From a virus (lineage: Duplodnaviria > Caudoviricetes): 64,000 nt of DNA. Position 1 is the stretch's first letter; the number at the start of each line of letters is the position of its first letter. Where the stretch lies: the IMG/VR virus record IMGVR_UViG_3300037722_001090; one strand, written 5' to 3'. Positions 7,165 through 42,105 of this stretch are shown piece by piece. The translations under genes were made by a program, and so were the position numbers. The notes under the pieces were generated by a model. That model ran no database searches and had not been told where the DNA came from. It saw nothing but the letters and a program-made list of their open reading frames with translations.

Positions 7165-7318
7165 AATTAGTCCCTTAAAATCTGAATGTAGCACAAATAT
7201 TAATACCTGCAGCAAAAATCCAATAAAGAGACATCCTAATATCTCCTTTTATCAAATACGTAATACTAGCTATAGTCATTAATGTTATGATAATTAAAGG
7301 AAAGATCTTTTCCATAAG

Positions 7319-18353: not shown

Positions 18354-18625
18354 ACAATAAAAGCCTTTTCAAGCATTACTATATAAAGAGGTTTTCCAAA
18401 CTTTGTCATTACCTCTAATGTCCCATTACCTGGGCCAAAAATAGCATCTTCTCCACAGTTTTTAACACGGAGAAAATTTCTACACTTTACACCGCTCATT
18501 CTCCACTCTTTAAGTTCCCACCACTTATCAGTTTCAGAATAATAAAAGCCAAAATTTATTCTCAATTCTACTGGCAGTTCAGTTTTTAAAATAGCAATGC
18601 CTTCTTTAATTTTTTCTTTATCCAT
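18350..18625 (-). CDS. hypothetical protein
   Basis: 91-aa ORF. Confidence 0.6.
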   Translation of the reverse strand: MDKEKIKEGIAILKTELPVELRINFGFYYSETDKWWELKEWRMSGVKCRNFLRVKNCGEDAIFGPGNGTLEVMTKFGKPLYIVMLEKAFIV

Positions 18626-18633
18626 AGAATTTC

Positions 18634-19188
18634 TTAATCATCTAGTAATGCCATAACAAGTGCCATACACTTATTGTGATATACATTGTTATTAATTGGA
18701 CTTTTTATAAATTTCTTTACTTGACCAATACATTCTCCAAGACGATTTTCTCCTTCCCAAAGCTCTTTATTTAGGCATTTTGGGTTATCTTCAAGAAGAC
18801 CAATACCCCAAATTCTATCATAAGGACTAGCTTCAACAATTTCAATGCCAGGATCATTCATCAAATAATTATAAAGCTTTTCGTTTTGTAGAAACTTTAG
18901 GTAGTTAGCTACATAAACAATGGCCATACTTGTTTCGCGATTCCACTTTTCATCACTGAAGCCTACAATCTTACGGCCAAGAGCTTTCTGATTACGAGGA
19001 TTTGTTTCCTTTAAAATTTTTTGAGAAGAAGCAATATCAACAAAAAGAAGTGCTTTAAAATACATCATAAATTGTTCAGCACAATTAAATGTAATATTAT
19101 TAAGTTTAAATTGAGAAGTATACCATTGAGAATAAGGTCCACTCCAGAAGAGACTAAAACCATTCTTTACATTATATACATTATCCAT
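18634..19188 (-). CDS. NADAR family hydrolase
   Basis: SQWY, AEQFMMYFKA, QKALGR, VEASPYDRIWGIG, GENRLG. Confidence 0.93.
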   Translation of the reverse strand: MDNVYNVKNGFSLFWSGPYSQWYTSQFKLNNITFNCAEQFMMYFKALLFVDIASSQKILKETNPRNQKALGRKIVGFSDEKWNRETSMAIVYVANYLKFLQNEKLYNYLMNDPGIEIVEASPYDRIWGIGLLEDNPKCLNKELWEGENRLGECIGQVKKFIKSPINNNVYHNKCMALVMALLDD

Positions 19189-29927: not shown

Positions 29928-30005
29928 TGGCTAGGGATGAGAGATTCGAACTCCCGCAAGACGCAGGATCAAAACCTGCCGCTCTACCAATTGAGCTAAT
30001 CCCCA
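29928..30005 (-). tRNA. tRNA-Gln(TTG)
   Basis: GCAGG-TTTTGAT-CCTGC; CCA. Confidence 0.9.
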
Positions 30006-30059
30006 ATGAAAAATACAACCTAGTTTCGCACCATGCTAATAGGTTGGAATAATATGTTA

Positions 30060-30207
30060 TTGTGAGGAATAAACGATGAGAGTATATTATACGCGTTCTA
30101 GCCAGTTAAACTACAGCCCTAGATTATATTACACTAGTAGAGCCGTCAGGATTTGAACCTGAATTCCGTCCTTGACATGGAAGTAACTCTTATCTACACC
30201 ATCACAA
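30060..30207 (-). ncRNA. Y RNA-like 1 (YrlA-type, permuted tRNA module)
   Basis: TGTGA-TGGTGTAG-ATAAGAG-TTACTTC ... T arm, closed acceptor, D arm ... CTCATC-GTTTATTCC-TCACA. Confidence 0.8.
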
Positions 30208-30216
30208 AATAAAAAT

Positions 30217-30291
30217 TGGTAGCTCCTGACAGAATTGAACTGTCTTTTTCGCTTTGTAAGAGCGACGTAATGCCCATTATACCAAGGAGCT
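30217..30291 (-). tRNA. tRNA-Val(TAC)
   Basis: TCGCT-CTTACAA-AGCGA; CCA. Confidence 0.9.
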
Positions 30292-30303
30292 ATCTTATAA
30301 ATA

Positions 30304-30391
30304 TGTATAAGGAATTAGCGAAAACGGAAATGTGTGCTTGGTTTATATTCAATTATAAGTAAGAAGTAACCGTTCTCTTCGCCATTATACA
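30304..30391 (-). ncRNA. Y RNA-like 2 (short form)
   Basis: GTATAA-TGGCGAAG-AGAACGG-TTACTTC ... CCGTTTTC-GCTAATTCC-TTATAC; contains GNCGAAG. Confidence 0.78.
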
Positions 30392-30401
30392 ATTCTAAAT
30401 T

Positions 30402-30477
30402 TGGTGGGGCCTTCCGGTAACGATCCGAATTCTTCTGTTCTTCAAACAGACGTGAGCACCTGCTTCACCAAAGCCCC
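30402..30477 (-). tRNA. tRNA-Phe(GAA)
   Basis: TCTGT-TTGAAGA-ACAGA; variant T loop; CCA. Confidence 0.85.
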
Positions 30478-30754
30478 AAATACCTCATCAGTATGTAATT
30501 CGTAAAGTTAAGAGGCATACATTCCATGTACTTTATTACCGCAAGAGGCTCGCTCTTAACTAAATTGTAAACTATAGTCCATATATCCGTTACATTAAGT
30601 GGTTTTGAAACCTATGTCTTCAGTGCCCCTCCAACATACTTTACTTAAACGCCCACTACAAGACACAATGCTTGCTAAAAGTCTCGCGTAATATACAGAA
30701 TTGCCACGTAAACGTGGTCTTCAAGCCCGATAGATTAAATCCAGAGCGGGAACA

Positions 30755-30830
30755 TGGTGTGCGCGGTCGGGATTGAACCGACGACCTGTAGATTAAAAGT
30801 CCACTGCTCTACCAACTGAGCTACGCGTAC
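30755..30830 (-). tRNA. tRNA-Lys(TTT)
   Basis: GTGGA-CTTTTAA-TCTAC; CCA. Confidence 0.92.
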
Positions 30831-30833
30831 ATT

Positions 30834-30974
30834 TTTATTAGGGTATAAGCGAAAAGAGTGTTTAAATCGGATGCTCTACCAACTGAGCTATATCGTTCGC
30901 GTGAGCTTTCAATAATGGGAATTGAACCCATGACCGTCTGAGGGGAAGTATCTCTTATCTACGCCACTAATAAA
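30834..30974 (-). ncRNA. Y RNA-like 3 (YrlA-type)
   Basis: TTTATTAG-TGGCGTAG-ATAAGAG ... ATGGG-TTCAATT-CCCAT ... AGCTCAGTTGGTAGAGC ... CTCTTTTCGCTTATACC-CTAATAAA. Confidence 0.8.
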
Positions 30975-30980
30975 CTTTAA

Positions 30981-31400
30981 TTAACTTGTTCTACCTATAG
31001 TTAGATGTAATCCATAATCATATGGAAAACCCATCTCTTTTCTGATATCAATGAGAAAATCACATTCAACATCAATAAACCAAAAAGGACTTGGCACGCT
31101 TAAGCCAGTTCTATCACCAGCTTGTCTTACGTTGCTACTATAAGTAAATTCTACTTCTAAGCCATTATACTTTTTCCAAAGATCCATATTATTTGGAAAT
31201 GGCTTCTCTCCTCGTATGATCGAAACATGTGAACCCCAAGATGGTTTGTTAAGCTCAACCCCCATCTCTTTAAAGGCCCACCAGCGATAATATCTAGTAA
31301 TATCTGCATCAATATTAAGAACACACCACCAGTCTTTTTTTTTCTTAAGTCCTGGCCTATAAGGATCATACTGAATAATGCCTTTACTGCTATGAATCAT
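30981..31400 (-). CDS. 2H phosphoesterase family protein
   Basis: Two Hx(S/T) motifs: SHVSII and LHLTIG. Confidence 0.75.
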   Translation of the reverse strand: MIHSSKGIIQYDPYRPGLKKKKDWWCVLNIDADITRYYRWWAFKEMGVELNKPSWGSHVSIIRGEKPFPNNMDLWKKYNGLEVEFTYSSNVRQAGDRTGLSVPSPFWFIDVECDFLIDIRKEMGFPYDYGLHLTIGRTS

Positions 31401-31576
31401 TACACTTTATTAGGCGGATTTTCCTGCCAGCGCTTCAGAGCTTTTTCAGCAACAGGATCACCGGGATGAAGTTCAAGATGTTTAGCAAGAATACGCATTT
31501 TATTATCACGAGTACGTGCACGCTTAGCGGCAATTTCACCCGGAGTAGCTTTTTTACCATTTTTACCTTTAGCCAT
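31400..31576 (-). CDS. small basic hypothetical protein
   Basis: MAKGKNGKK..., GGAG RBS. Confidence 0.6.
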   Translation of the reverse strand: MAKGKNGKKATPGEIAAKRARTRDNKMRILAKHLELHPGDPVAEKALKRWQENPPNKV

Positions 31577-31604
31577 GACAAACTCCATAATTCTAGTTAT
31601 AGGT

Positions 31605-31681
31605 TGGTGCCCCATATTGGATTTGAACCAATGACCTTCCGCTTCGTAGGCGGACGCTCTATCCAGCTGAGCTAATGTGGC
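31605..31681 (-). tRNA. tRNA-Arg(ACG)
   Basis: TCCGC-CTACGAA-GCGGA; CCA. Confidence 0.92.
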
Positions 31682-31687
31682 AAATTA

Positions 31688-31830
31688 TTTTACAAGGAAC
31701 AAACGACAACACAAATTTTTAGCGCTCTACCGATTGAGCTACACATATGCTTTTGGCATACATGACAGGACTCGAACCTGCAACCACTCTATTAGCATTA
31801 GATGTAAGTGTTATCTACGCCATTGTAAAA
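31688..31830 (-). ncRNA. Y RNA-like 4 (YrlA-type)
   Basis: TTTTACAA-TGGCGTAG-ATAACAC ... GCAGG-TTCGAGT-CCTGT, closed acceptor, D arm ... GTCGTTTGTTCC-TTGTAAAA. Confidence 0.8.
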
Positions 31831-31841
31831 CTGAAATTTTC

Positions 31842-32001
31842 TTAAGAAATATAAGGAACATTCGGATACAGATAGTTTTTTGTGCTACCATTACAACACA
31901 TGCCCATGTTTCATTATGGTGGACACGCTCGGATTCGAACCGAGACCGCATTATTATAAGTATTGAAGTAACTGTATTCTACACCATTATATTTTTCTTA
32001 A
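31842..32001 (-). ncRNA. Y RNA-like 5 (YrlA-type)
   Basis: TATAA-TGGTGTAG-AATACAG-TTACTTC ... CTCGG-TTCGAAT-CCGAG-CGTGTCC-ACCA ... GGGCATG, D arm ... CTGTATCCGAATGTTCC-TTATA. Confidence 0.8.
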
Positions 32002-32005
32002 ACTT

Positions 32006-32078
32006 TGGTACCGCTGCAGGGAGTTGATACCCCGATTTCCTAGTGGTGTACTAATGGTATTGCTTATACGACAGCGAT
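32006..32078 (-). pseudogene. degenerate tRNA-like gene
   Basis: ATCGCTG/CAGCGGT-A-CCA; non-canonical D, anticodon and T loops. Confidence 0.5.
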
Positions 32079-32178
32079 AAATTTTGGTGCCAGGTATCGG
32101 AATTTAACCGTTTTTCGAAGACATAGGTAATGATCCTAATCCCCAGTGCTGCATAACCAGACCCAACATGATTTCTTT

Positions 32179-32264
32179 TGGTACCCGACCCCGGACTCGA
32201 ACCGGGACGCCTTGCGGCATGGGGCCTAAACCCAACGGCTATACCATAGTTCGCCTAGCCGGGC
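32179..32264 (-). tRNA. tRNA-Leu(TAG)
   Basis: Loop TTTAGGC, long variable arm, CCA. Confidence 0.9.
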
Positions 32265-32271
32265 ACATTGT

Positions 32272-32787
32272 TTAACCATTATATCCTTTAAACCACTCAT
32301 CAAGCTCAGGATCTTTATGTCTTTTAACTATAAACTCATAAAGCATAGGCTGATAAGGTTTATAACTTTTCTTGAAATAGCTCATTCCAGCTTCTTCAGG
32401 TGTTCTATCTGCTTTTTTCTGATTACAATCATGACAAGCAGATGCTACATTGTCCCAGGTAGTCTTACCTCCCTTAGAGGAAGGAACTACGTGTTCAATT
32501 TCAAGTTGTTTTATGGTCAATGATGCGCCACAATAAACACAGCGATAGCCATCTCTTTCAACCATATTTTCTTTGCTGAATCTTAGTCGCTTACCATATA
32601 GCCCTTTAGCTAAATCAAACAGCTTTATCTTCTTTGGAACGAAGCTAGTCTCACGTATATTACTCAAGTCACCTTCGTAATCAACAAGAAAGGCTTTGCC
32701 GTTTTCAATCATATGCTTAGCGCGTCTGGTTGAAACTTTATTGATGCATGCAAAGTCAGCGTTGAGTACTGAAACTGACCCTTTCAT
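32272..32787 (-). CDS. HNH endonuclease (McrA-like fold)
   Basis: ERDGYRCVYCG, EHVVPSSKGG, NVASACHDCNQKKADRTPEEAGM. Confidence 0.9.
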   Translation of the reverse strand: MKGSVSVLNADFACINKVSTRRAKHMIENGKAFLVDYEGDLSNIRETSFVPKKIKLFDLAKGLYGKRLRFSKENMVERDGYRCVYCGASLTIKQLEIEHVVPSSKGGKTTWDNVASACHDCNQKKADRTPEEAGMSYFKKSYKPYQPMLYEFIVKRHKDPELDEWFKGYNG

Positions 32788-32821
32788 AATACACACTAGA
32801 CCTTTCTTTTTATTTTATTGT

Positions 32822-32899
32822 TGGTGTGACCGAGGAGATTTGAACTCCCGTTCATTGATTCACAGTCAATGCGATTAGCCTAGCTATCTTACAGTCACC
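32822..32899 (-). tRNA. tRNA-His(GTG)
   Basis: ATTGA-CTGTGAA-TCAAT; encoded G-1, with A rather than C at 73. Confidence 0.88.
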
Positions 32900-32902
32900 A
32901 CA

Positions 32903-32986
32903 TTGCAGGTACATGGGGAATCGAACCCAAAAGTGAAGAGTTTTGGAGGCTCTTGCTAACCCAGCTAGCTTTACACTCACGCACCT
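32903..32986 (-). tRNA. tRNA-Trp(CCA) with an enlarged D region
   Basis: Loop CTCCAAA; AGGTGCG/TGTACCT-G. Confidence 0.75.
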
Positions 32987-33423
32987 AAAATCGAGCTAGT
33001 TTTGTACATCGGAAACTAGCAACCTTCTGCTTACTTATCGTGTAAGTGTCCCAGACAATAAACATACAAATAAAGGGCAGGGTTTTTACCTGCATCAATA
33101 GACAATCCTTTCTTAAGGGACTGACCCTCACTAAAGAAGGTTACATATTTATATGCTTATTTTCATATAATGAGTTCTCTCCACTCAATAAGTCAAGCCT
33201 TGAAGCTACATGCAAGTCGCTATGCTTCTTACATATACCTTACCGTCAATACGGAGTATGCCGGCTTTCACCACTTTAATCAATAATCCACTCTTGGCGT
33301 TCCTTCCAAGCGATATCTGTCAATTCAGATCTAAATGGTGCGCATTCATTTTTATGGTACTCTTAGAGGGCTCGTAAGCCAAAACCATGCTATTATTGTT
33401 CAGCGTTTAGGAAATATTATTTT

Positions 33424-33468
33424 TGGTTGGGATAACTGGATTTGAACCAGTGACCCCCGAGTTATCAG
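33424..33468 (-). pseudogene. 3' part of the old tRNA-Ile(GAT)
   Basis: CTGATAA-CTCGG-GGGTC-ACTGG-TTCAAAT-CCAGT-TATCCCA-A-CCA. Confidence 0.9.
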
Positions 33469-33472
33469 CTTT

Positions 33473-33546
33473 TGGTACGCTCACTAAGAATTGAACTTAG
33501 ATGGTCCGGTTATCAGCCGAATCCTCTACCGTTGAGGTATGAGCGT
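33473..33546 (-). tRNA. tRNA-Ile(GAT), cassette-borne copy
   Basis: TTCGG-CTGATAA-CCGGA; ACGCTCA/TGAGCGT-A-CCA. Confidence 0.9.
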
Positions 33547-33561
33547 ATAGTTTCGAATTTA

Positions 33562-33571
33562 GTTATTAACA
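33562..33571 (+). promoter_or_regulatory. GTTATTAACA motif
   Basis: 28 nt upstream of the HNH start. Confidence 0.65.
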
Positions 33572-33599
33572 CTTATCACATATTGATAAGGAGTTAATA

Positions 33600-34085
33600 A
33601 TGAATTCATGCTTAAATTGTAGTAAAGAAACACTTAATCCAGTATTTTGTTCACGCTCATGTTCTGCTTCCTATGCTAATAAAATAAAGCCAAAACGTAA
33701 GAAAGAGGGTAAATGTGCAATCTGTAATGAAATAATCTCTGCTTCAAGGGCTTATTGTTCAGATATTTGTCGTGGTAAAGCTAGATCTATTGCCCGTAAA
33801 AATTCTAAAGCAAAAACGGGATATGAAAATATAAAAACCCACCGGCAAAAAGTCAAATTAAGAGCCGTACAATATAAAGGAGATAAATGTCAAATATGTA
33901 ATTATGATAAAACACCAGTTAATCTATCATTTCATCATTTAAATCCAGGTAAAAAAGATTTTAACCTTAGTGGTAATTATCACTTAACCTGGGAGACAAT
34001 ACAGGCTGAACTTGATAAATGTATTTTATTATGTATGAATTGTCATGGAGAAGTTCATGTAGGAATTATAAAAATTCCAGACTGA
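33600..34085 (+). CDS. HNH homing endonuclease
   Basis: CLNC, FCSRSC; CQICNY, SFHH, KCILLCMNCHGEVH. Confidence 0.9.
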   Translation: MNSCLNCSKETLNPVFCSRSCSASYANKIKPKRKKEGKCAICNEIISASRAYCSDICRGKARSIARKNSKAKTGYENIKTHRQKVKLRAVQYKGDKCQICNYDKTPVNLSFHHLNPGKKDFNLSGNYHLTWETIQAELDKCILLCMNCHGEVHVGIIKIPD

Positions 34086-34096
34086 GCTATACCCCA
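34077..34096 (-). pseudogene. 5' fragment of the old tRNA-Ile
   Basis: TGGGGTA-TA-GCTC-AGTCTGG; acceptor complements TATCCCA. Confidence 0.85.
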
Positions 34097-34102
34097 ATAA
34101 AC

Positions 34103-34170
34103 TGTGGAAGAACTGACGAGTCATCGTCAACAGGATATCACTTGCAACCCTACAGGAGGGAAATTCTTCC
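34103..34170 (-). ncRNA. tRNA-like element with an acceptor stem
   Basis: GGAAGAA/TTCTTCC-A; hairpin TGACGA-TGAC-TCGTCA. Confidence 0.4.
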
Positions 34171-34218
34171 ATAACTTTTTTTTAACTGGAGCGGGTAATC
34201 GGGCTACCTGCTTTTTAT

Positions 34219-34293
34219 TAGAGCGGATGGTCGGGATCGAACCGACGACAAACAGTTTGGAAAACTGCAATTCTACCACTGAATTACACCCGC
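34219..34293 (-). tRNA. tRNA-Gly(TCC)
   Basis: GCAGT-TTTCCAA-ACTGT; CCA not encoded. Confidence 0.9.
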
Positions 34294-34308
34294 ATTGAAC
34301 TTTTTAAC

Positions 34309-34393
34309 TAGTGGGACGGATAGGACTCGAACCTATGAAACCCGAAGGTGGAAGATTTACAGTCTTCTGCAATTGCCACTATGCGACTGTCCC
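34309..34393 (-). tRNA. tRNA-Tyr(GTA)
   Basis: GAAGA-CTGTAAA-TCTTC, long variable arm. Confidence 0.92.
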
Positions 34394-34760
34394 ATGATGC
34401 CACCCATAGGTGGACTTTTATTTATTGATTGGCCCCCTTCTGATCTAAAGAGCATTTAATCAAATCCGCTTGAACCAATCTTCTAGATATAATTGAGGAT
34501 TTTCTTTATAGACGTGAACTCATCCTCTGCAAACATGTCTTTCCGATAAGAGTGTAGGATTATTTTATCTTACGGGAGCTTACTCCGCTACTTCAATACC
34601 GCTAGGCTTCACCTGATTGCTTATGTCAGTCACGCCATCACCGCACATAAGGCGTGCGTCCCAGTTTCCTCTTATCTAGCAACTCAAGCCATAGACGCCT
34701 GATCCGTTCAGGTCAATTAAGAACACGATATCACAATCGGCCCTCTATGGGTTTCGTATT

Positions 34761-34814
34761 TGGTGCCAGACCAGCTGCAACCATGAATCACAGCTCTCTC
34801 GAGATCCGTCTGGC
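34761..34814 (-). ncRNA. mini tRNA-like element
   Basis: GCCAGAC/GTCTGGC-A-CCA enclosing only about 36 nt. Confidence 0.45.
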
Positions 34815-34830
34815 TTTTTGTTAAACTAAT

Positions 34831-34905
34831 TGTGGACCCTATCGGGCTCGAACCGATAACCTCCTAAGTGCAAGTCAGGTGCTCCCCCAGTTGAGCTAAG
34901 GGCCC
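34831..34905 (-). tRNA. tRNA-Ala(TGC)
   Basis: CCTGA-CTTGCAC-TTAGG; G3:U70. Confidence 0.92.
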
Positions 34906-34916
34906 ATTGTAAAATT

Positions 34917-34990
34917 TGGTCGAAAGTGATGGACTTTAACCACCGGCCTCCTCCACCCAAGGAGGTGCCCCTTCACCGGGCCGACTTTCG
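34917..34990 (-). tRNA. atypical tRNA-Pro-like gene (6-nt anticodon loop)
   Basis: CGAAAGT/ACTTTCG-A-CCA; CCTCC-TTGGGT-GGAGG; T loop TTAAAGT. Confidence 0.6.
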
Positions 34991-34997
34991 AAATTTT

Positions 34998-35076
34998 TGG
35001 ATGCGGATGCTAGATTTGAACTAGCGATCTTTTGGTTATGAGCCAAATGGGATAGGCCAGACTTCCCCAATCCGCA
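34998..35076 (-). tRNA. tRNA-Met(CAT)
   Basis: TTTGG-CTCATAA-CCAAA; TTCAAAT; CCA. Confidence 0.85.
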
Positions 35077-35102
35077 AAACCATGTAGTTTTTTTTATGAA
35101 AC

Positions 35103-35600
35103 TTAAGAAAGCAAGTTCATTGCTTTAACAAACTTTGAAGCTCCAATGATTTCAGCAGCATCATAAAAAGCATTTACTTCTTCCTGCGTTGCAATACGCA
35201 TATTCTCTTCAGTAAAATGAGGAAGATTATTGCCTACAGCACCACCAATATCGACAGCATTCTTGCCTTGATATACAGCAATAAGCTCTCCAATAGCATA
35301 GCTATGACTGTTAGTATTGTCAAGAAGAAGAATCATAGCACCTTTGGGTGCTCCAAGGACAGAAGGCAGCAAAATATCTTTGGATTTAGTAGTGATCTTT
35401 TCACCAATAAGTTCTCCTACAATACCAATAATATCTCTTTTGCCACCAGAGCAAAAGTTACCCGATCCATTGATAAGAGCTAGAAGCTTTTTAGCCTTCT
35501 CACTAGGCTCTTTCTCTTTTTCAGTATAAGCTTTTTCAAGAATAGCAGACAATTGCTTTGTTGCTTCTAGAGACATTGCTCTAAGTTCTTTCAGATCCAT
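35103..35600 (-). CDS. hypothetical protein
   Basis: Start MDLKELRAM; weakly resembles the 54927-55469 ORF (R.A..EE...F). Confidence 0.7.
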   Translation of the reverse strand: MDLKELRAMSLEATKQLSAILEKAYTEKEKEPSEKAKKLLALINGSGNFCSGGKRDIIGIVGELIGEKITTKSKDILLPSVLGAPKGAMILLLDNTNSHSYAIGELIAVYQGKNAVDIGGAVGNNLPHFTEENMRIATQEEVNAFYDAAEIIGASKFVKAMNLLS

Positions 35601-35637
35601 TTTAAAATTTCCTAAAAAGTTGTTTAAAGATACGGTG

Positions 35638-35988
35638 TTACATTTCAGAAATAAAACAATGACCATCATGTTCAACGGCCACACGAGTAGCAGGACCTAA
35701 AAGGTCACTATATTTACGAAGCCATAAACTGATTGTTGGTTGTGCTACACCAGTACTGAGAACGGCATTATAAAGCTCCTTGAACTTAATGGGAGCAGAA
35801 AATCTCCCACTTCTTCCACGGCCTAAGCGATAGTTAGGTCCAGCAGCAGCTTCAAGCTCTTTCGCAATAATACGGCGGGCTTTATATCCATATTGAGCAC
35901 CATGTGTAGGTACTCCTGGGATTTCTGCTTGTTGACGAAATTTCACTGCACGACAATCATTAAGCGCTTGTAAAAATTCCTTAGTCAT
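35638..35988 (-). CDS. hypothetical protein
   Basis: 116-aa ORF with a GAGG RBS. Confidence 0.7.
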   Translation of the reverse strand: MTKEFLQALNDCRAVKFRQQAEIPGVPTHGAQYGYKARRIIAKELEAAAGPNYRLGRGRSGRFSAPIKFKELYNAVLSTGVAQPTISLWLRKYSDLLGPATRVAVEHDGHCFISEM

Positions 35989-36010
35989 ACTAAAAATTCC
36001 TCAAAAATGT

Positions 36011-36085
36011 TGGCGGCATAGACCGGGATTGAACCGGCAACTTCCTATTCGACAGACAGGCACTCTACCATTGAGTTACTACGCC
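36011..36085 (-). tRNA. tRNA-Asp(GTC)
   Basis: CCTGT-CTGTCGA-ATAGG; G73; CCA. Confidence 0.92.
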
Positions 36086-36094
36086 AGTTAATTT

Positions 36095-36177
36095 TGGCTC
36101 TGAGAGTTGGATTTGAACCAACGACCTCGCTTTTTAAAGGCGGCCACCTACGCGCTCTACCACTGAGCTATCTCAGA
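36095..36177 (-). ncRNA. tRNA body with a distorted anticodon arm (contains CTTTAAA)
   Basis: Canonical acceptor, D and T arms; about 9 extra nt in the anticodon region. Confidence 0.65.
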
Positions 36178-36191
36178 ACACTATTCAGTTT

Positions 36192-36270
36192 TGGTTACCA
36201 GGACCGGAGTTGCACCGATGACCACCTACCCGTGTAGATAAGTAGCTCTTTTACTGAGTCTTACCCGGCA
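36192..36270 (-). tRNA. atypical tRNA (Val-like, 8-nt loop ATCTACAC)
   Basis: TGCCGGG/CCTGGTA-A-CCA; T loop TGCAACT. Confidence 0.5.
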
Positions 36271-36284
36271 ACATAATTTTTTAT

Positions 36285-36360
36285 TAGCAGTCGCACCGAG
36301 GATCGAACTCGGCTCTCAATCTTGAAAGGATTGCGTCCTGGCCTACTAGACGATGCAACC
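36285..36360 (-). tRNA. tRNA-Glu(TTC)
   Basis: CAATC-CTTTCAA-GATTG. Confidence 0.9.
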
Positions 36361-36375
36361 AAAAACCTTAAGTAA

Positions 36376-36453
36376 TGGAGCCCACTATCGGATTCGAACC
36401 GATGACCTACGGGTTACAAATCCGTTGCTCTGGCCGAACTGAGCTAAGCGGGC
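36376..36453 (-). tRNA. tRNA-Thr(TGT)
   Basis: Loop TTTGTAA; CCA. Confidence 0.92.
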
Positions 36454-36460
36454 AATTAAT

Positions 36461-36534
36461 TGGTGGGCCTTATCAGACGTTACCCTGATCCAACTGCATG
36501 TACTGTGCAGCTGAGCAACTTACACTATCGTCCC
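36461..36534 (-). pseudogene. degenerate tRNA-like gene
   Basis: CCA end; CTGCA-CAGTACA-TGCAG arm; mismatched acceptor. Confidence 0.45.
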
Positions 36535-36560
36535 ATATTAAATTTTTTATTACTACTTAT

Positions 36561-36652
36561 TGGCTCCCCAGAGTGGGCTCGAACCACTATACCGCTCTCG
36601 CGGAATACACTTGATTAACAGTCAAGCCTCTTACCAATTAGAGTACCGAGGA
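36561..36652 (-). tRNA. tRNA-Asn(GTT) with a long variable arm
   Basis: CTTGA-CTGTTAA-TCAAG; variable hairpin TTCCGC-GAGA-GCGGTA; G73; CCA. Confidence 0.85.
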
Positions 36653-37189
36653 ATGGTATTTTTTATATCTTTTTCTTACAGCAGCTTCAGAAATATCTAG
36701 TATCTCTGAAATTTGTACATTAGTCATGGTCTTTTTTAGTTCTGTTAAATCTATTTTATCCCAATTGACTTTTCCTGATAGCTTAGCTGCACAATTATGA
36801 GAACAAGTTTTATTATACATTGGTTTTGAAGCACCACAAACAGGACACTCATTAATTTTAACAGTTATCATCTTGTATTCAGCATATTTTTCATTAAAAT
36901 ATTGTTTAACTTCAGGACTAGTTCTTATTCCTGAATGTATTTCGCAATGACAATTATGACATAAAAGAATACATTTTCTTAATTCTATAATAATTTTTTC
37001 CCAAGCCTTAGGATTACCTCTTATTGCTCCAAGAGTAAATTCTTTTTTACTAGGATCAAGATGGTGCAAAGCTAACGCGTCATTACACTTATCATATCCA
37101 CAACAAGAGCATTTACCTCCCATTGATAATACAATTCTTTCTTTTGTTTTTTTACGCCACTCTTTAACACGCTCAGAACCTTCACTCAT
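36638..37189 (-). CDS. HNH homing endonuclease with a C-terminal HTH
   Basis: CSCCGY, LALHH, KCILLCHNCHCEIH; stop codon lies inside the tRNA-Asn 5' end. Confidence 0.9.
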   Translation of the reverse strand: MSEGSERVKEWRKKTKERIVLSMGGKCSCCGYDKCNDALALHHLDPSKKEFTLGAIRGNPKAWEKIIIELRKCILLCHNCHCEIHSGIRTSPEVKQYFNEKYAEYKMITVKINECPVCGASKPMYNKTCSHNCAAKLSGKVNWDKIDLTELKKTMTNVQISEILDISEAAVRKRYKKYHSSVL

Positions 37190-37219
37190 AGAACCTCCAA
37201 CATAATTATTAACTATACA

Positions 37220-37229
37220 TGTTAATAAC
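37220..37229 (-). promoter_or_regulatory. GTTATTAACA motif
   Basis: 30 nt upstream of the HNH start. Confidence 0.65.
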
Positions 37230-37356
37230 TACATTATGGTTCTAAGAGTTTTACATTTTTAAAACGAGCACTGGGAGCTTGGTACTCTCTATCACGATCA
37301 AGTCGTGCTTCGCCTACCAGTTTTATCTAGTACTTAGACTCATTTTAATAATTTAT

Positions 37357-37429
37357 TACCCAAGAACAAACGAAAACAGTGTTGGTTTCAATTCAAAGGT
37401 GAAGTAACTGTTTTCTAACACTATGGGTA
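37357..37429 (-). ncRNA. Y RNA-like 6 (short form)
   Basis: TACCCA-TAGTGTTAG-AAAACAG-TTACTTC ... CTGTTTTCGTTTGTTCT-TGGGTA. Confidence 0.72.
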
Positions 37430-37448
37430 TATTTTTAACTTTTTCTTA

Positions 37449-37525
37449 TGGTCGGAATAGCAAGAATCGAACTTGCGACCTCTCCCTCCCAAGGGGAGCG
37501 CTCTACCAGGCTGAGCCATATTCCG
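37449..37525 (-). tRNA. tRNA-Pro(TGG)
   Basis: CTCCC-CTTGGGA-GGGAG; CCA. Confidence 0.93.
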
Positions 37526-37790
37526 AAAATATAATTAGTCTATACATGTTTGTCTTTTTAGGAGACTGGTTATAACCCAGTATAGTAGGTATCTGCCTAT
37601 TGACAGAATTTTGCCACACTAATTTAATACATTATTTAATTGTCAATGAACTTAATCAACACTACGAAATAGATTAGTTGAAAGCTTAATCATATCATTC
37701 GATATATTGATTTCAAATTTTTTAAAAAGAACAACTACAAAAATAGCAAAAATTAAACATAAATACCAAAACATAGCGTATCCTTAAATT

Positions 37791-37820
37791 AAAAAACCGC
37801 AGGGATTATCTCCGCTGCGG
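37791..37820 (-). terminator. intrinsic terminator
   Basis: CCGCAG..CTGCGG hairpin followed by a T run on the minus strand. Confidence 0.7.
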
Positions 37821-38085
37821 CTAAAATAAGAATATGTATTATATTACTTAAGTAGTTACGCAGCTAGTATTAGTTGCCCAGAGATTGCCTAGATTCTTAT
37901 TATCATGGCTAGCAAAGGCTGGTATAAATGGGCGCTCAATAATTTGATACACGGGTACATTCATCTCAAGAGGTTTAAGTCTTGAATTGCATGAATAGCA
38001 CGCTTGTGTTTGAGCTAAAGAGCAACAACAGATCATTTTACTAATACTTCCTTTTCAAAAATAGCACGACTTGTGTGCTTATGTT

Positions 38086-38095
38086 TGTTAATAAC
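38086..38095 (-). promoter_or_regulatory. GTTATTAACA motif (not endonuclease-linked)
   Basis: Upstream of the small Cys-rich ORF 37848-38036. Confidence 0.5.
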
Positions 38096-38130
38096 TGGTT
38101 ATGTTTTTTTACGGAAAACTTTATTTAAGA

Positions 38131-38284
38131 TGCTAGAGAACATGCGATAAGAGAGATGGCCGAAGCCGTTCATACCGGTGCGTTTACCAATTTCGCCACC
38201 CCTCCATAAAAGTGGAGGACGCAGGACTCGAACCTGCAAATATCCGGTCCCAATAGAAGTAACTCTTATCTATCACTACTAGCA
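38131..38284 (-). ncRNA. Y RNA-like 7 (YrlA-type)
   Basis: TGCTAG-TAGTGATAG-ATAAGAG-TTACTTC ... GCAGG-TTCGAGT-CCTGC, closed acceptor, Leu-type D arm GGCGAAATTGGTAAACGC ... CTCTTATCGCATGTTCT-CTAGCA. Confidence 0.8.
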
Positions 38285-38289
38285 ATCAA

Positions 38290-38652
38290 TTAATTTTTAC
38301 GATCGACTTTGACGAAGATCTCATTAGGTGCTTCAGGAAAGTATTTAAAAAGAGCAGGACAAAGCCATCCTTCAATTCCAATTACATCCTTAACAACACA
38401 GTCCGTAATAGTATACCAGTTGCCGCCCCACTCTTCGCGTGTACGAACGAGAGAGATTTGGCTACCAGGGAAATTACTAGCAGAGAAGGTAAGAGCAACA
38501 CCTTTCTCTGCTTCAGGAATATCACCAGTAAGTGCATCAATCATAAAATTGATTGCACCAACAAAAGGTTCACGAACAAGACCAACTTTGTCATCATCAA
38601 ACGCCCAGATGCCACCGTTCCTGTACGGATAGATAACCATCAGTGCATTCAT
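38290..38652 (-). CDS. conserved hypothetical protein (DUF6717-like)
   Basis: IYPY..GIWAFDD..GL.REPFV, WLCPALFKYF. Confidence 0.6.
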   Translation of the reverse strand: MNALMVIYPYRNGGIWAFDDDKVGLVREPFVGAINFMIDALTGDIPEAEKGVALTFSASNFPGSQISLVRTREEWGGNWYTITDCVVKDVIGIEGWLCPALFKYFPEAPNEIFVKVDRKN

Positions 38653-38656
38653 ATGA

Positions 38657-39394
38657 TTAACGAGTCACAGCACGAATAGGAGTACGCAGCCAATCAGCTT
38701 CGCCACAGAAATCTGCAGCACGAGCCATAAGACCATTGAACTTATTGCCGAGGCCAGGATTAGTAATCTGGAACTCAAGCGTAAACGGCTTGAATCCAGC
38801 AGTAGGAAGGCTCACCTTCTGAACAACCATGCCATCGGGGGTAGTAGCAGAGCTAAGTACCGTAGCTACACCAGCACAACCGCACTGCGCATCAATGGCA
38901 GTAACAAGAGGTCCAAAAAGCCAGTCCTGACGATGATTAAATTCACGAGCAGCATGGTTAAAGGTATTTTTCAGCTTGTCAGCTACAGCTGCAGTACGAA
39001 GAGTGAATACAATGGAGTAGGGCTGAAAACCAGCAGCCACTTCATTAAGTGCAGTTTTAATAACACGAAGGCCATCAGCTGCAGCAATAACAGCACAAGT
39101 ATTGTCTTCGACAGTAGCGGCAGCAGTAGCAGGACCGGTAATACGAGCAGTAGCTTCAGCTGTGAAAAAGCGGAGAGTACGCTCGGCAGCAATAATGCGT
39201 CCAATGTTCTGAACCTTGCTGTAAGAACGGACATTGGTAAGATTAAGACGCTGAGCAACATCTTCAATTACCCAGTAATTGTCAGTTGAGCGCTTTCCAC
39301 CAGTAACGCGAGCGCCGGTTTCATCACGCACAACACATCTGTTACGAAGCTCTTGTTCAAATGCGGCAAGAGTAGGACGAATAACATCAGTCAT
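38657..39394 (-). CDS. hypothetical protein
   Basis: Ala-rich ORF directly downstream of the TROVE gene. Confidence 0.75.
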   Translation of the reverse strand: MTDVIRPTLAAFEQELRNRCVVRDETGARVTGGKRSTDNYWVIEDVAQRLNLTNVRSYSKVQNIGRIIAAERTLRFFTAEATARITGPATAAATVEDNTCAVIAAADGLRVIKTALNEVAAGFQPYSIVFTLRTAAVADKLKNTFNHAAREFNHRQDWLFGPLVTAIDAQCGCAGVATVLSSATTPDGMVVQKVSLPTAGFKPFTLEFQITNPGLGNKFNGLMARAADFCGEADWLRTPIRAVTR

Positions 39395-39455
39395 TTTTGA
39401 TTCCTTTAAAATAGTTGTTTTAAAAAGGGGCCACACTATGTGACCCCACAGTTAA

Positions 39456-40883
39456 TTAAGCAGCATGAATAGCAAGAGACTTTTCATACTCACGAACATA
39501 GTCAATAGTTGCTTCAGAGAAGCCGTTGACATGAGTCCATTTGGAATTGTAGCCAACACCATTTTCATAGCTAGCAACATTGATAATATAGCCAAGCCCA
39601 TTAGGCTGTGCAATGCCAGTTTGGCTCTGTTCGTCAGTAAAGACGATGATACGGTCATACTTGCCATTAGTCTTGTTAATATACTCAACAGCACGATGAA
39701 GATCAGTACCGCCAAATCGCTGACTGTTCTTAATAGCCTCACGAAGAGCAAATCCACGACGAGGAGCAATCTGCTTAACGTCAGTAGAAAAGCTATAGAC
39801 ATCAACTTCTTCGCAAACTTCACGAGCAAGCATAGCAATGCCAAAGGCTGCATCCATACGAGTCATTTCGCTTTTGTCAGACATCTTAGCGCACATGGAA
39901 CCAGAGACGTCAACAAGAAGGATAGTCTTACCAGCAATCTTCTCTTGTACATCAAGACATTTCAGCATACCAGTTTCAAGAGCATCTTCATACTGAGGAG
40001 CATAGTTCGCAGCAGTAATGAAGCGATAAGGAAGAACACGTTCAGGGTTCATGCTACGAAGCGCATTCTTGATTAAGGCAGGATCAACGCCAGCTTCAGT
40101 CATTCCGCGCAAGTTACGAAGAAGTGCCAACGCACCAAGAAGATTTTTTTGCTCAGGATCAAGATTAGCATTCAGCATACGAGTGAACGTATCCTTTTTA
40201 TTCTCACCAGCGGACAGATTAGTTTCCCAGGTATCAGGAGTTGCAAGAGTGTCAGCTGCCAACTTTGCCCAGAGTGCAGCCTGAGCAGCATCCTTAGGTT
40301 TAGCGTGGCACAAGAATAGCACGTCGCGGAGCTTAATGGCACTGTTGCGATTGTATTTCGCAAGAGAATACTCATCAAACTTAGTGAACGCACGAGCAAG
40401 ACCCTTTTTCACGGAAGCTGCAATAGGAGTCTTCTTGAATACGCGCTCAGTAGTAAGCCGCATGCTGTCATAGTAGCCGTATCCTTTAGTAGCCTTTGTC
40501 TCAGTTTCCGTCCAATACATAGCAAGAAACTCAGCAAGCTCATCAGGACGCTGAATAACAGCCTCAAGAGCATCAGCGACAATATGACGATGAGTCGGAA
40601 TGCGAGCAGCCTCACGAACTAGCATGAGAGGGGCATGCCGCAGTTTAAAAGCAGTACGAGCCTCAAGCGCAAGAGCAGCAACAGTTTCCGGAGGAACAGT
40701 TGCTACCAAATTTTTGATACGCTCAGACACAGAAATACCATCTTCGTAAAAGTTATCCTCAAACAGAAGACAACCAAGAATAGTACGACGAAGCATCTCT
40801 TCGTTTTTTGCTACAACCACACTTGCGCCTGCATGATTGAGGGATCGGATAGCACGAGGTGCTGGTTTATTTGTTTTCGCCAT
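39456..40883 (-). CDS. Ro60/TROVE-domain RNA-binding protein with a vWA domain
   Basis: N..G, LLFEDNFYE, LRDVLFLCH, TWE, ALLRNL, LPYRF, VDVSGSM (MIDAS), GGTD, VFTDEQ, GFSE. Confidence 0.95.
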   Translation of the reverse strand: MAKTNKPAPRAIRSLNHAGASVVVAKNEEMLRRTILGCLLFEDNFYEDGISVSERIKNLVATVPPETVAALALEARTAFKLRHAPLMLVREAARIPTHRHIVADALEAVIQRPDELAEFLAMYWTETETKATKGYGYYDSMRLTTERVFKKTPIAASVKKGLARAFTKFDEYSLAKYNRNSAIKLRDVLFLCHAKPKDAAQAALWAKLAADTLATPDTWETNLSAGENKKDTFTRMLNANLDPEQKNLLGALALLRNLRGMTEAGVDPALIKNALRSMNPERVLPYRFITAANYAPQYEDALETGMLKCLDVQEKIAGKTILLVDVSGSMCAKMSDKSEMTRMDAAFGIAMLAREVCEEVDVYSFSTDVKQIAPRRGFALREAIKNSQRFGGTDLHRAVEYINKTNGKYDRIIVFTDEQSQTGIAQPNGLGYIINVASYENGVGYNSKWTHVNGFSEATIDYVREYEKSLAIHAA

Positions 40884-41094: not shown

Positions 41095-42105
41095 CTAAAT
41101 GTTATTTAAGATTTCGCCAAATACTTCACGTTGGATAAGACGGACAAGCCAGTCTTCCCAGCGCTTACGATTTACTTCACTGGGATACTCAGAAATAGCA
41201 GTAAGCTTTTCACAAGTATCAATTAGAGATTCCATTAAGGGAAGAACTTCCGTTAAATAATCCATCTCTCCGTTTTTAATTTTTCGTAGCGTAGAGCCAC
41301 AGCTTAATGGATACTGTATAGTACCAACAGTCATTATGGAGATAAGCTGAAAAGCAGCACGAATAGCATGACTTATCGCTTTCCAATCAATACCTTCATT
41401 AGCTTCTGCCTTCTTAGCTCTAGCGCCATATTCATCATACTTCTTTTTTATGCCATCACGCATATATTCAAGAGTAACAGTTTCCTGAAACTTCTGACCA
41501 CATACTTGATACATACGATATTGGTTCTTATCTCCAGCATCAGGAGACAGTTTATGGATATGTTCACCGGCAGGCAAACAGTCCCAAGTACCATCTAGCT
41601 TAATGCTAATGTTACGATCCACAACAAAATCAAGAACCGCTTTCATTGCAATAAGACGAGAGCCTTTAACTCCATATTTAGCAGCTTGTGAGCGAGCATA
41701 TCCAATAAATGATTTTAATTCGCTTGTATAAAACTCTGATCTAGAAGCAGTCATCTCGTCCCAGATTACAGAAGTAGCAAATATTTTATCTTTAGGAATA
41801 TGCAACATATCAAGAGCAGCAGTATCGCCGTCCATAGCAAGTTTAAGGAAATAATTAAGAGAATAGAATTCAATATCTACATCATCTTTACTGTTCTTCC
41901 CATCTGTTTCTTTTGTCTTAAAATGAATAGATTTTGGATAAAGACCAAGATAAACTTCTCTTTTTGTAGGCATATAAATGCCTTTAAAGTCCCAGTCTGA
42001 ATCTTCAGTATTTGCACCATAAAGACGAGAGCCAAATACTCCAAACATTAAAACATTCAAGTTTCCTATTTCAGGAAACATTTTTAATACTTTTTGATAA
42101 TTCAT
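41095..42105 (-). CDS. Pol-beta-superfamily nucleotidyltransferase (RlaP-like)
   Basis: FGSRLYG..TEDSDWDFKGIY, D.E.YSL..F, WKAISHA.R. Confidence 0.87.
   Translation of the reverse strand: MNYQKVLKMFPEIGNLNVLMFGVFGSRLYGANTEDSDWDFKGIYMPTKREVYLGLYPKSIHFKTKETDGKNSKDDVDIEFYSLNYFLKLAMDGDTAALDMLHIPKDKIFATSVIWDEMTASRSEFYTSELKSFIGYARSQAAKYGVKGSRLIAMKAVLDFVVDRNISIKLDGTWDCLPAGEHIHKLSPDAGDKNQYRMYQVCGQKFQETVTLEYMRDGIKKKYDEYGARAKKAEANEGIDWKAISHAIRAAFQLISIMTVGTIQYPLSCGSTLRKIKNGEMDYLTEVLPLMESLIDTCEKLTAISEYPSEVNRKRWEDWLVRLIQREVFGEILNNI

Follow-up and report, generated by a model that had tools for sequence, protein, structure and literature searches.

A phage Ro60 gene with seven probable Y RNA-type partner genes, most of them embedded in a tRNA cluster

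The window analysed here is 64 kb of DNA from an uncultured large phage; four metagenome runs, perhaps including its own source in two cases, gave the identical assembly. It raises the question of what a phage Ro60 gene is doing in the company of many small structured elements. An earlier note, made from the DNA sequence, had described a phage Ro60 with seven dispersed Y RNA-like genes. Are these elements the RNA partners of Ro60, or are they remnants of tRNA genes, regulatory parts of an mRNA, or RNAs whose main business lies elsewhere?

We begin with the protein. Judged by its sequence, the predicted product is a full-length Ro60, in which a TROVE domain, of the HEAT-repeat ring type, precedes a vWA domain whose MIDAS motif (DVSGSM) is intact. 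Both Pfam matches lie above their cut-offs (TROVE, 4.7e-13; vWA_Ro60, 3.2e-11), and the ORF also matches PHROG 850, 'RNA-binding protein', at 3e-44. Residues 37-464 align with the solved Ro60 of Thermus phage phiLo (9KOP/9L5Y; E 2.5e-13), and the phiLo motifs DVSGSM, GGT, and TDEQ line up with the same motifs in the window protein. The gene lies 1172 nt from the nearest element, E7, in keeping with the earlier reading of a complete TROVE/vWA gene about 1.2 kb away.

The RNA elements were detected with a covariance model, R1, seeded with 16 short-form elements, 14 of which come from other contigs; the seed includes E6 (alignment A1) and none of the five long copies from the window. With filters off, R1 found exactly seven matches in the whole 64-kb window, all on the minus strand and scoring 41.6-72.3 bits (E ~4e-8 to 9e-16); the best remaining match has an E of 2.4 (Table 1). 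Each of the seven elements previously described was thus recovered, at or within 5 nt of its original start.

Table 1. Features of the 64-kb window discussed in the text
Feature	Coordinates	Strand	Evidence
Y RNA E1, long form	30060..30207	(-)	R1 46.4 bits; alignment A3
Y RNA E2, short form, exact GGCGAAG	30304..30391	(-)	R1 64.0 bits, E 1e-13
Y RNA E3, long form	30834..30974	(-)	R1 41.6 bits
Y RNA E4, long form	31687..31831	(-)	R1 42.0 bits
Y RNA E5, long form	31847..31994	(-)	R1 47.6 bits; alignment A3
Y RNA E6, short form (handle only)	37357..37429	(-)	R1 72.3 bits, E 8.7e-16
Y RNA E7, long form, handle start AGUGAUAG	38131..38284	(-)	R1 48.7 bits, E 6.6e-10; A3
tRNA gene cluster embedding E1-E6, 19 ARAGORN calls	29928..37525	(-)	ARAGORN, Rfam tRNA
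Terminator-like hairpin, 9 bp, 6 GC, then T run	39427..39447	(-)	consensus scan, pattern match only
Ro60 (Rsr-type) gene, 475 aa	39456..40883	(-)	Pfam TROVE + vWA_Ro60, PHROG 850, phiLo alignment
RlaP-family nucleotidyltransferase gene	41095..42105	(-)	Pfam RlaP 2e-17, PHROG 388 9e-85
Rnl1-type RNA ligase gene	6040..7215	(-)	Pfam RNA_lig_T4_1 1e-22
CCA-adding enzyme gene with HD domain	50827..52236	(-)	Pfam PolyA_pol, PolyA_pol_RNAbd, tRNA_NucTran2_2, HD
Metallophosphoesterase gene	52648..53385	(-)	Pfam Metallophos 2.3e-10

All seven elements share a handle, built on the frame of terminal stem, motif, second stem, and bulged 3' partner that had been noticed before. A terminal stem of 6-9 bp is followed by a bulged U and an RG:CY pairing (GG:CC in the consensus). 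On the 5' side, RG leads into YG(N)NAGA, a second stem of 8 bp, and (G)WUACWUC, while the 3' side reads YCG, then 4-5 nt, UU/UA, and CC/CU; in the internal loop a GGYGNA motif stands opposite G-YUUGUU. Bacterial YrlA RNAs carry the motif GNCGAAN0-1G, a YUAY sequence, and a T arm, acceptor-like stem, and D arm in that order (PMC4201824). In the window, this published motif is exact in E2 only (GGCGAAG), the element singled out in the earlier note. The other six handles are relaxed, with GGCGUAG in E3 and E4, GGUGUAG in E1 and E5, AGUGUUAG in E6, and AGUGAUAG in E7 (summarised as GGYG[U/UU/AU]AG), and the YUAY position after the Ro-binding stem is UUAC in six of the seven copies and AUAC in E3. 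The handle stems vary in sequence between copies while their pairing is kept: in the 16-sequence seed, compensatory changes are seen at 13 of the 16 pairs, and among 66 homologues 93.5% of cells are paired, versus 60% in shuffles and 43-50% when the partner strand is slid, with double changes in all 16 handle pairs. Thus, the seven elements are members of a covarying structured RNA family, and the proposal that their stems differ but stay paired, bulged stem included, holds.

Five copies (E1, E3, E4, E5, and E7) have an insert at the tip of the handle, made up of a T arm, then a closed acceptor-like hairpin, then a D arm, with no anticodon arm; in E7 these are joined by an additional 3' hairpin. 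E2 and E6 consist of the handle without a tRNA-like domain, a form also known from smaller Y RNAs such as YrlB, and roughly one-third of the handle RNA family lacks the tRNA-like head and keeps the handle. RNAalifold, run on an unfitted MAFFT alignment of 28 long forms (A3), recovered the handle, T arm, acceptor-like stem, and D arm, with 28 of 30 pairs compensatory. In E5, CCA stands directly 3' of the 3' strand of the acceptor-like hairpin, and this copy matches the permuted-tmRNA model in its T arm and acceptor part; some long-form heads could be substrates for RNase P or the CCA-adding enzyme. Comparison with the Rfam YrlA model (RF02553; gathering score, 69 bits) bears out a kinship with Y RNAs in part. 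E4 matches over the full model length at 40.9 bits (E 2.4e-6), below threshold, E3 reaches 28.9 bits, and E1 17.8 bits in a partial match; no match was seen for E2, E5, E6, or E7, and thus none of the seven attains the gathering score. Their relatives also score below it, the best being a copy from phage Tenjo at 55.9 bits. Because of the missing gathering-score match, we file the seven RNAs as a divergent branch that works like YrlA rather than as members by the curated model.

The elements alternate with tRNA genes, from which 3-54 nt separate them. E1 sits between tRNA-Val and tRNA-Gln, and E2 between tRNA-Phe and tRNA-Val with gaps of 10 and 12 nt; E3 lies 3 nt ahead of tRNA-Lys, E4 5 nt ahead of tRNA-Arg, and E6 19 nt past tRNA-Pro. 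This proximity, together with the T and D arms of the long forms, could be taken to mean that the elements are structured spacers, or tRNA remnants that are degenerate and circularly permuted, serving as processing signals or lingering as pseudogenes, with no tie to Ro60. Yet what is conserved is the handle rather than the tRNA part, and head-less copies retain it. ARAGORN called no tRNA among the seven elements, and none reached the Rfam tRNA gathering score (E5 attains 17.6 bits only). Nor are the heads recent copies of any of the co-resident tRNAs.

Relatives of the locus bear on this question further. The handle RNA family occurs next to related Ro60 genes in 22 viral contigs, 8 named phages, and 80 bacterial loci, and in these 110 other loci all homologues lie on the Ro60 strand. 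The 22 viral loci contribute 66 matches, all on the strand of Ro60, and the 80 bacterial loci 303 matches, which without exception share its strand too and, save for one, lie upstream of the gene. In many related loci, L002, L006, and L017 among them, the array adjoins Ro60 and there are no tRNA genes at all, and in the whole 280-kb genome of Caulobacter phage CcrColossus the 8 matches form one array beside Ro60. None of the eight GenBank phage records inspected annotates Y RNA elements, and one CcrColossus copy is labelled tRNA-Gln there. That label fits a tRNA origin, but arrays that accompany Ro60 without tRNA genes, and genome-wide matches confined to the side of Ro60, argue against one, and we regard tRNA remnants as very improbable. 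In phages and bacteria alike, the handle RNA family shows a firm genetic linkage to Ro60, lying on the strand of that gene in every related locus examined.

The position of these arrays suggests another possibility. In most relatives the array ends within ~30-150 nt of the Ro60 start codon on the same strand, an arrangement resembling the rsr-yrlBA-rtcBA operon, from whose transcript the Y RNAs are excised. The elements might then act in cis, as structures in the leader or trailer of the Ro60 operon mRNA, and be autoregulatory Ro60 binding sites rather than independent stable RNAs. However, all seven window copies are downstream of Ro60, past two ORFs and the terminator-like hairpin directly 3' of its stop codon; E6 is 2.0 kb from the gene and E1-E5, among the tRNAs, are 7.5-9.2 kb from it. 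Moreover, Salmonella YrlA and YrlB accumulate as separate RNAs (PMC4201824). We therefore give a cis-acting role very little credence.

How unusual is the locus? The earlier note held that Ro60 is usually found with few RNAs, which does not stand for this Ro60 clade: arrays of 2 to 8 copies are the rule, and CcrColossus and Acidobacteriota loci reach 8. Since such arrays are usual in phages and Acidobacteriota, seven copies are not exceptional; and since Ro60 with multi-copy Y RNAs is common in phages and soil bacteria, the window locus is a new example and not a new type of system. What is particular to this lineage is the spread of the copies among the genes of a tRNA cluster, as far as 9.2 kb from Ro60, the adjoining RlaP gene along with further RNA-repair genes at other places in the window, and a recurring set of five long and two short forms. 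The closest relative, L001, also has 7 copies, 5 long and 2 short, two of which pair with window copies by sequence identity and three more by their neighbouring tRNA genes. E7 has a syntenic orthologue at 12767-12939 (73% identical) and E4 an orthologue at 18578-18709 (78% identical), while E3 is syntenic with 19042-19179, likewise ahead of tRNA-Lys; the syntenic partner of the short E2, at 20084-20224 after tRNA-Phe, is a long form. RlaP lies directly upstream of Ro60 in the window and is adjacent to it in L001 as well (RlaP 63% identical), and the L001 contig carries homologues of the CCA-adding enzyme and the metallophosphoesterase, the latter a possible RNA end-healing enzyme. Among the window ORFs scanned, no RtcB gene and no PNPase gene was found.

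Taken together, these observations lead us to conclude, with a probability of roughly 0.8, that the seven elements are genes for the Y RNA-type partners of Ro60, five of them YrlA-like tRNA mimics and two handle-only. Several points count against this explanation: the published motif is not kept exactly in six of the seven handles, and in phiLo single changes in CGAA cut affinity; no copy reaches the Rfam gathering score; E1-E5 are remote from Ro60 and a terminator-like hairpin follows that gene, so that co-regulation is not evident; and the window ORFs scanned include no RtcB gene. On this explanation, the Y RNAs would be transcribed together with the tRNA cluster and, because they lie 3-54 nt from tRNA ends, would probably be released by tRNA-processing enzymes, such that the tRNA ends probably define their own. 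The handle would bind Ro60, by analogy with the CGAA internal loop of the phiLo Yrl RNAs, and the tRNA-like head or variable tip may recruit a second factor. This could be a 3'-5' exoribonuclease of the host, for instance PNPase, a partner borrowed from Deinococcus and phiLo, or else an enzyme of tRNA handling and repair such as the adjacent RlaP, Rnl1, or the CCA-adding enzyme. During infection, the resulting particle might survey structured RNAs, tRNAs foremost, or protect them, and several diverged copies could yield several particles sharing one handle.

Alternatively, the RNAs could bind Ro60 but act mainly as decoys for host tRNA-targeting nucleases or tRNA-sensing defence, with Ro60 merely stabilising them and different heads covering different threats. 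Heads that mimic tRNA without an anticodon arm would suit such a role, as would the retention of individual paralogues in the relative G001. A tRNA array with RlaP, Rnl1, a CCA-adding enzyme, and a phosphoesterase is the usual phage answer to tRNA cleavage (PMC7824862), and Hughes et al. proposed that YrlA may competitively inhibit an anticodon nuclease (PMC7790460). Against this, the head is missing from two of the seven copies and from roughly one-third of the family, although all of these retain the handle, and bacteria carry the same arrays in their chromosomes, a setting in which anti-defence is a less obvious function; we consider decoys unlikely. Somewhat more doubtful still is the idea that the seven RNAs are conserved, specialised adaptors rather than redundant copies, five with different permuted-tRNA heads and two head-less, each paralogue being kept separately in related phages, and that together with Ro60, RlaP, Rnl1, and the CCA-adding enzyme they form a multi-adaptor platform that protects or repairs the tRNAs of phage and host. 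If that were true, each head would be a guide or decoy for a different enzyme against a tRNA-cleaving defence.

Returning to the reading of the elements as Ro60 partners, several known systems offer comparisons. Like bacterial and mycobacteriophage YrlA, the window RNAs lie on the Ro60 strand and have a 5' motif of the GNCGAA type in the terminal stem (exact in E2, relaxed in the other six) followed by YUAY, and their long forms are ordered T arm, closed acceptor-like stem, D arm. Unlike YrlA, they have the handle consensus GGYGNAG, the conserved 3' bulge YUUGUU, and an invariant UUACUUC. The 2014 survey by Chen et al. (PMC4201824) applied a 4-kb limit from Ro60 and found ~1.3 YrlA per genome, whereas the window has seven copies, five of them past that limit, with E1-E6 embedded in the tRNA cluster. 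In phiLo, Ro60 has been shown to bind Y-like RNAs of the phage and, with host PNPase, to assemble into ternary complexes; its Yrl RNAs bind Ro60 through an internal loop that contains CGAA, in which single changes cut affinity 3-4 fold (PMC12135203). Like phiLo Yrl1 and Yrl2, the window RNAs are small, of the handle type, and place the motif in an internal loop, but the two Ro60 proteins are only ~24% identical (tblastn), and phiLo has two RNAs rather than seven, with no tRNA-like head described. The published phiLo RNAs were chosen upstream of the gene by their CGAA motif, whereas R1-type matches in phiLo sit downstream.

Closer to the window is CcrColossus (NC_019406), already cited as a phage with Y RNA-like RNAs, which has a Ro60 40% identical to that of the window and RNAs of the same family, long forms as well as short. 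Its 8 copies, however, are packed in tandem into 1.2 kb immediately upstream of Ro60 instead of being dispersed between tRNA genes, and the locus has no adjacent RlaP gene. The tRNA cluster of phage T4 encodes the small stable RNAs species 1 and 2, and the window RNAs are similar in that they are not tRNAs, have their genes within a tRNA operon of a phage, and probably owe their release to tRNA-processing enzymes; T4 is not known to have a Ro60. In the Rsr-Yrn1-PNPase complex of Deinococcus radiodurans (RYPER), a Y RNA tethers the Ro60 ring to an exoribonuclease. RYPER belongs to a cellular stress system, and its Y RNA has a different, independently evolved architecture, but it provides our working model for how the window system may act.

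Reading of the minus strand together with a motif scan placed seven Y-RNA-like elements (E1-E7) in the window, in agreement with the positions proposed in the earlier note. As a comparison set, we used 22 viral contigs encoding relatives of the window Ro60 protein, in which the 5' motif UGGYGNAG ... WUACUUC adjoins almost every Ro60 relative gene. A covariance model (R1) was built from an alignment of 16 short elements (A1), 14 of which came from other contigs, leaving five of E1-E7 outside the seed. When run over the whole window with filters off, R1 returned exactly seven matches, all on the minus strand (41.6-72.3 bits, E-values of 4e-8 to 9e-16), and the next candidate had an E-value of 2.4. 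Because R1 returns exactly those seven, five of them from outside its seed, the presence of the elements is confirmed far beyond chance. The complete TROVE/vWA Ro60 gene described alongside them is also there: residues 37-464 of its product align with the Ro60 structure solved for Thermus phage phiLo, and the MIDAS motif DVSGSM is kept. The two ORFs between Ro60 and E7 (259 aa, no family; 120 aa, DUF6717) were considered as partners and rejected, being unconserved in the closest relative and having no Atlas match.

Features of the window and of compared loci (window coordinates unless another sequence is named)
Feature	Coordinates	Strand	Remarks
E1	30060-30207	minus	with tRNA-like head
E2	30304-30391	minus	handle-only
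E3	30834-30974	minus	with tRNA-like head
E4	31687-31831	minus	with tRNA-like head
E5	31847-31994	minus	with tRNA-like head
E6	37357-37429	minus	handle-only
E7	38131-38284	minus	with tRNA-like head
Ro60, complete ORF	39456-40883	minus	Pfam TROVE and vWA_Ro60
Rnl1 ligase	6040-7215		RNA toolkit gene
RlaP	41095-42105		RNA toolkit gene
CCA-adding enzyme with HD domain	50827-52236		RNA toolkit gene
Metallophosphoesterase	52648-53385		RNA toolkit gene
PhoH-PIN protein			RNA toolkit gene
HNH endonuclease	32272-32796	minus	within tRNA/Y RNA cluster
HNH endonuclease	36638-37189	minus	within tRNA/Y RNA cluster
ORF-free segment	32004-32080	minus	acceptor-like terminal pairing; ends ACCA; small cloverleaf-like fold, z -1.7
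ORF-free segment	32096-32172	minus	acceptor-like terminal pairing; reads on to GGCACCA just past folded range; fold indistinguishable from shuffles
ARAGORN tRNA, undetermined identity	34917-34990	minus	two-base 'anticodon' gg
ARAGORN tRNA, undetermined identity	36095-36177	minus	two-base 'anticodon' gc; tRNA by Rfam, 51.7 bits
Rfam tRNA match	53406-53531	minus	51.4 bits, 126 nt, whole model; no ARAGORN call
tmRNA gene, viral locus L003	8696-9089		
tmRNA gene, crAss-like cr106_1 (L029)	5386-5689		
Handle RNA, CcrColossus (L024, NC_019406)	5169-5333 of locus		
GenBank 'tRNA-Gln', CcrColossus	109217-109284 of record		within the handle RNA
R1-type match, phiLo (L035, MH673673)	4204-4267		26.4 bits, E 3e-5
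R1-type match, phiLo	4395-4472		14.1 bits, E 0.036

Folding of A1 with RNAalifold gave two stems, a terminal one and a second one of 8 bp, separated in this order by a bulged U, a 2-bp GG:CC step and an internal loop; compensatory changes occur in 13 of the 16 pairs. We refer to this bulged two-stem part of each RNA as the handle. The suggestion that its stems diverge in sequence yet stay paired is borne out by the 66 homologues from the viral loci, which, in an alignment fitted to the model, have 93.5% of cells standard-paired, versus 60% in column shuffles and 43-50% with the 3' partner slid, and double changes in all 16 pairs. Since that alignment is a fitted one, we added an unfitted one (A3), in which 28 long forms were aligned by plain MAFFT and folded with RNAalifold. 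Besides the handle, its consensus has a T arm of 5 bp whose loop is of the UUCGAAU type, then a closed, variable hairpin and a D arm of 4 bp, and 28 of its 30 pairs are compensatory. Contigs from four metagenome runs showed no differences from the stretch, and thus offered no population variants for testing pairing; the identical assembly of this DNA occurs in several metagenome runs from sediment and soil.

As had been noted, the copies come in long and short forms: five carry the T arm, acceptor-like hairpin and D arm, and two are handle-only. The family has a bimodal length distribution, one class measuring 63-76 nt and the other about 130-148 nt, and some copies are intermediate. Of the 49 long forms, 43 have the T-loop motif, in most cases about 42-60 nt in from the 5' end. 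The exact published motif, GNCGAAN0-1G, occurs in E2 alone among the seven, the element in which the earlier note had pointed it out; the family consensus is GGYGNAG, which covariation places largely in the internal loop, facing a conserved G-YUUGUU. The heads could be recent copies of neighbouring tRNAs, an origin that we rejected since their matches are to generic D and T arms only and fall within the tRNA-to-tRNA background. That the elements as a whole are debris of the tRNA cluster is likewise poorly supported, because head-less copies keep the handle and arrays exist in loci without tRNAs.

How usual is a seven-copy set? The 22 viral loci hold 66 R1 copies, each on the strand of its Ro60 gene; most stand immediately upstream of that gene as tandem arrays of 2-5. 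Among named phages, a search of the whole 280-kb genome of Caulobacter phage CcrColossus with R1 found eight copies in one 1.2-kb array beside Ro60; Xanthomonas phage Tenjo and Brevundimonas phage Papperlapapp have five each, Ralstonia phage RsoM2USA three (two within a tRNA cluster), Rhizobium phage TM30 three, Microcystis phage Mvi-JY20 two, crAss-like cr106_1 one to three, and phiLo one or two weak matches. Inspection of these eight records found no Y RNA annotation for any copy. At 80 bacterial Ro60 loci, mostly from Acidobacteriota and including Candidatus Angelobacter and Granulicella rosea DSM 18704 (loci L036-L115), whose proteins are 43-58% identical to the phage Ro60 of the window, there were 303 R1 matches, every one on the strand of the Ro60 gene and, with one exception, upstream of it, in tandem arrays of up to eight per 5-kb flank. 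Because arrays run up to eight in phages and bacteria alike, seven copies lie at the high end of the normal range and are no outlier. The premise of the earlier note that few RNAs are the rule for a Ro60 does not hold in this Ro60 clade; the rest of its reading of the feature is supported.

Two observations in these loci concern other small RNAs. The GenBank 'tRNA-Gln' of CcrColossus is probably not a tRNA gene but a Y RNA's tRNA-like head. L003 and cr106_1, two phages unrelated to each other, each encode a tmRNA; its gene is separated from the Ro60/Y RNA module by a few hundred to a few thousand bases.

The window belongs to a large, uncultured phage. It is gene-dense, with genes on one strand and 24 tRNA calls by ARAGORN, and also encodes HNH endonucleases (two of them scattered among the tRNAs and Y RNAs), PHROG-type phage genes and NAD-salvage genes. 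Its Y-RNA-like copies are indeed interleaved with tRNAs, with gaps of 3-54 nt to tRNA ends and distances to Ro60 of up to 9.2 kb. Both here and in the closest relative (L001/G001), whose Ro60 is 67% identical, the copies are downstream of Ro60 and scattered in the tRNA cluster. The window copies lie beyond a terminator-like hairpin, which argues against their being mRNA leaders, a poorly supported reading. The relative's 103.7-kb contig has seven copies too, five long and two short. E7 and E4 each match a single relative copy by sequence identity (73% and 78%), and E6, E3 and E2 were matched via flanking tRNA genes, their identities being no higher than among paralogues; one pair is short in the window and long in the relative. 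These pairings suggest that individual paralogues are kept over time, with loss or gain of heads. Directly upstream of Ro60, both have RlaP, and the CCA-adding enzyme and phosphoesterase are common to both. Since these three genes recur on the L001 contig only, and are absent from the other Ro60 loci compared, the RNA-repair link of Ro60 is lineage-specific.

Neither ARAGORN nor Rfam called the two ORF-free segments near 32 kb, and a 277-nt stretch without ORFs, between tRNA-Lys and tRNA-Phe, folds no better than shuffles. Two ARAGORN tRNAs have abnormal anticodon loops. At 53406-53531, a whole-model Rfam match spanning 126 nt suggests that an insertion of about 50 nt splits a tRNA gene.

The RNAs are linked to Ro60 genes, their handle is conserved, and the window protein is homologous to a Ro60 known to bind RNAs of this kind; Ro60 binding is therefore the most likely role of the handle. 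Because the elements are packed tightly with tRNAs, they may be co-transcribed with them and released by RNase P and 3'-processing enzymes. RNase P cleavage and CCA addition have been shown for a mycobacterial YrlA, YrlA being a tRNA-mimic bacterial Y RNA (Chen et al., 2014; PMC4201824), and in E5 a CCA follows the 3' strand of the acceptor-like hairpin. By analogy with Deinococcus and phiLo, the resulting particles might tether Ro60 to an exoribonuclease, or alternatively to tRNA-handling and repair enzymes. A live alternative to Ro60 tethering is that the RNAs act as decoys of tRNA-directed host nucleases.

The window locus reveals no new type of machinery. Systems of this kind have been on record since 2014, and structural work on one from a phage has followed. 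Its interest lies in a documented sub-family that Rfam does not hit at its threshold, that the eight phage records inspected leave unannotated, and that has cultured, tractable carriers. The window is a clean case, with seven diverged copies of one handle beside RNA-repair genes; the same unannotated family adjoins Ro60, as arrays of up to eight copies, in cultured phages of Caulobacter (CcrColossus), Xanthomonas (Tenjo) and Ralstonia (RsoM2USA), and many Acidobacteriota carry it beside Ro60. Curators thus gain a sub-family that Rfam YrlA misses at threshold, and experimenters a system in which to ask why a Ro60 would need several Y RNAs.

The long forms share the arm order of YrlA, in which a T arm, an acceptor-like stem-loop and a D arm follow one another and the two ends form the Ro-binding stem (Chen et al., 2014; PMC4201824). 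At gathering scores, Rfam found no Y RNA family, either in the window or across 19 related loci, and in E-value mode YrlA (RF02553; threshold 69 bits) matched E4 at 40.9 bits over the full model length, E3 at 28.9 and E1 at 17.8. Relatives tested in viral, named-phage and bacterial loci also fell below threshold (none of 12 bacterial loci reached it), the top score being 55.9 bits in Tenjo. From the shared layout and these scores, the RNAs form a divergent branch, outside what the curated model collects, that probably works like YrlA. In phiLo, R1-type matches are limited to two sites just downstream of Ro60, overlapping the annotated hypothetical CDS phiLo_25 and carrying GUACUUC and UUCC motifs. 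Yrl1 and Yrl2 of phiLo were chosen upstream of Ro60 by their CGAA motif (PMC12135203), and thus the RNAs studied there may differ from the family-type partners of phiLo Ro60. The CGAA motif of phiLo sits in a large internal bulge (PMC12135203), matching the internal-loop position of GGYGNAG in the window family.
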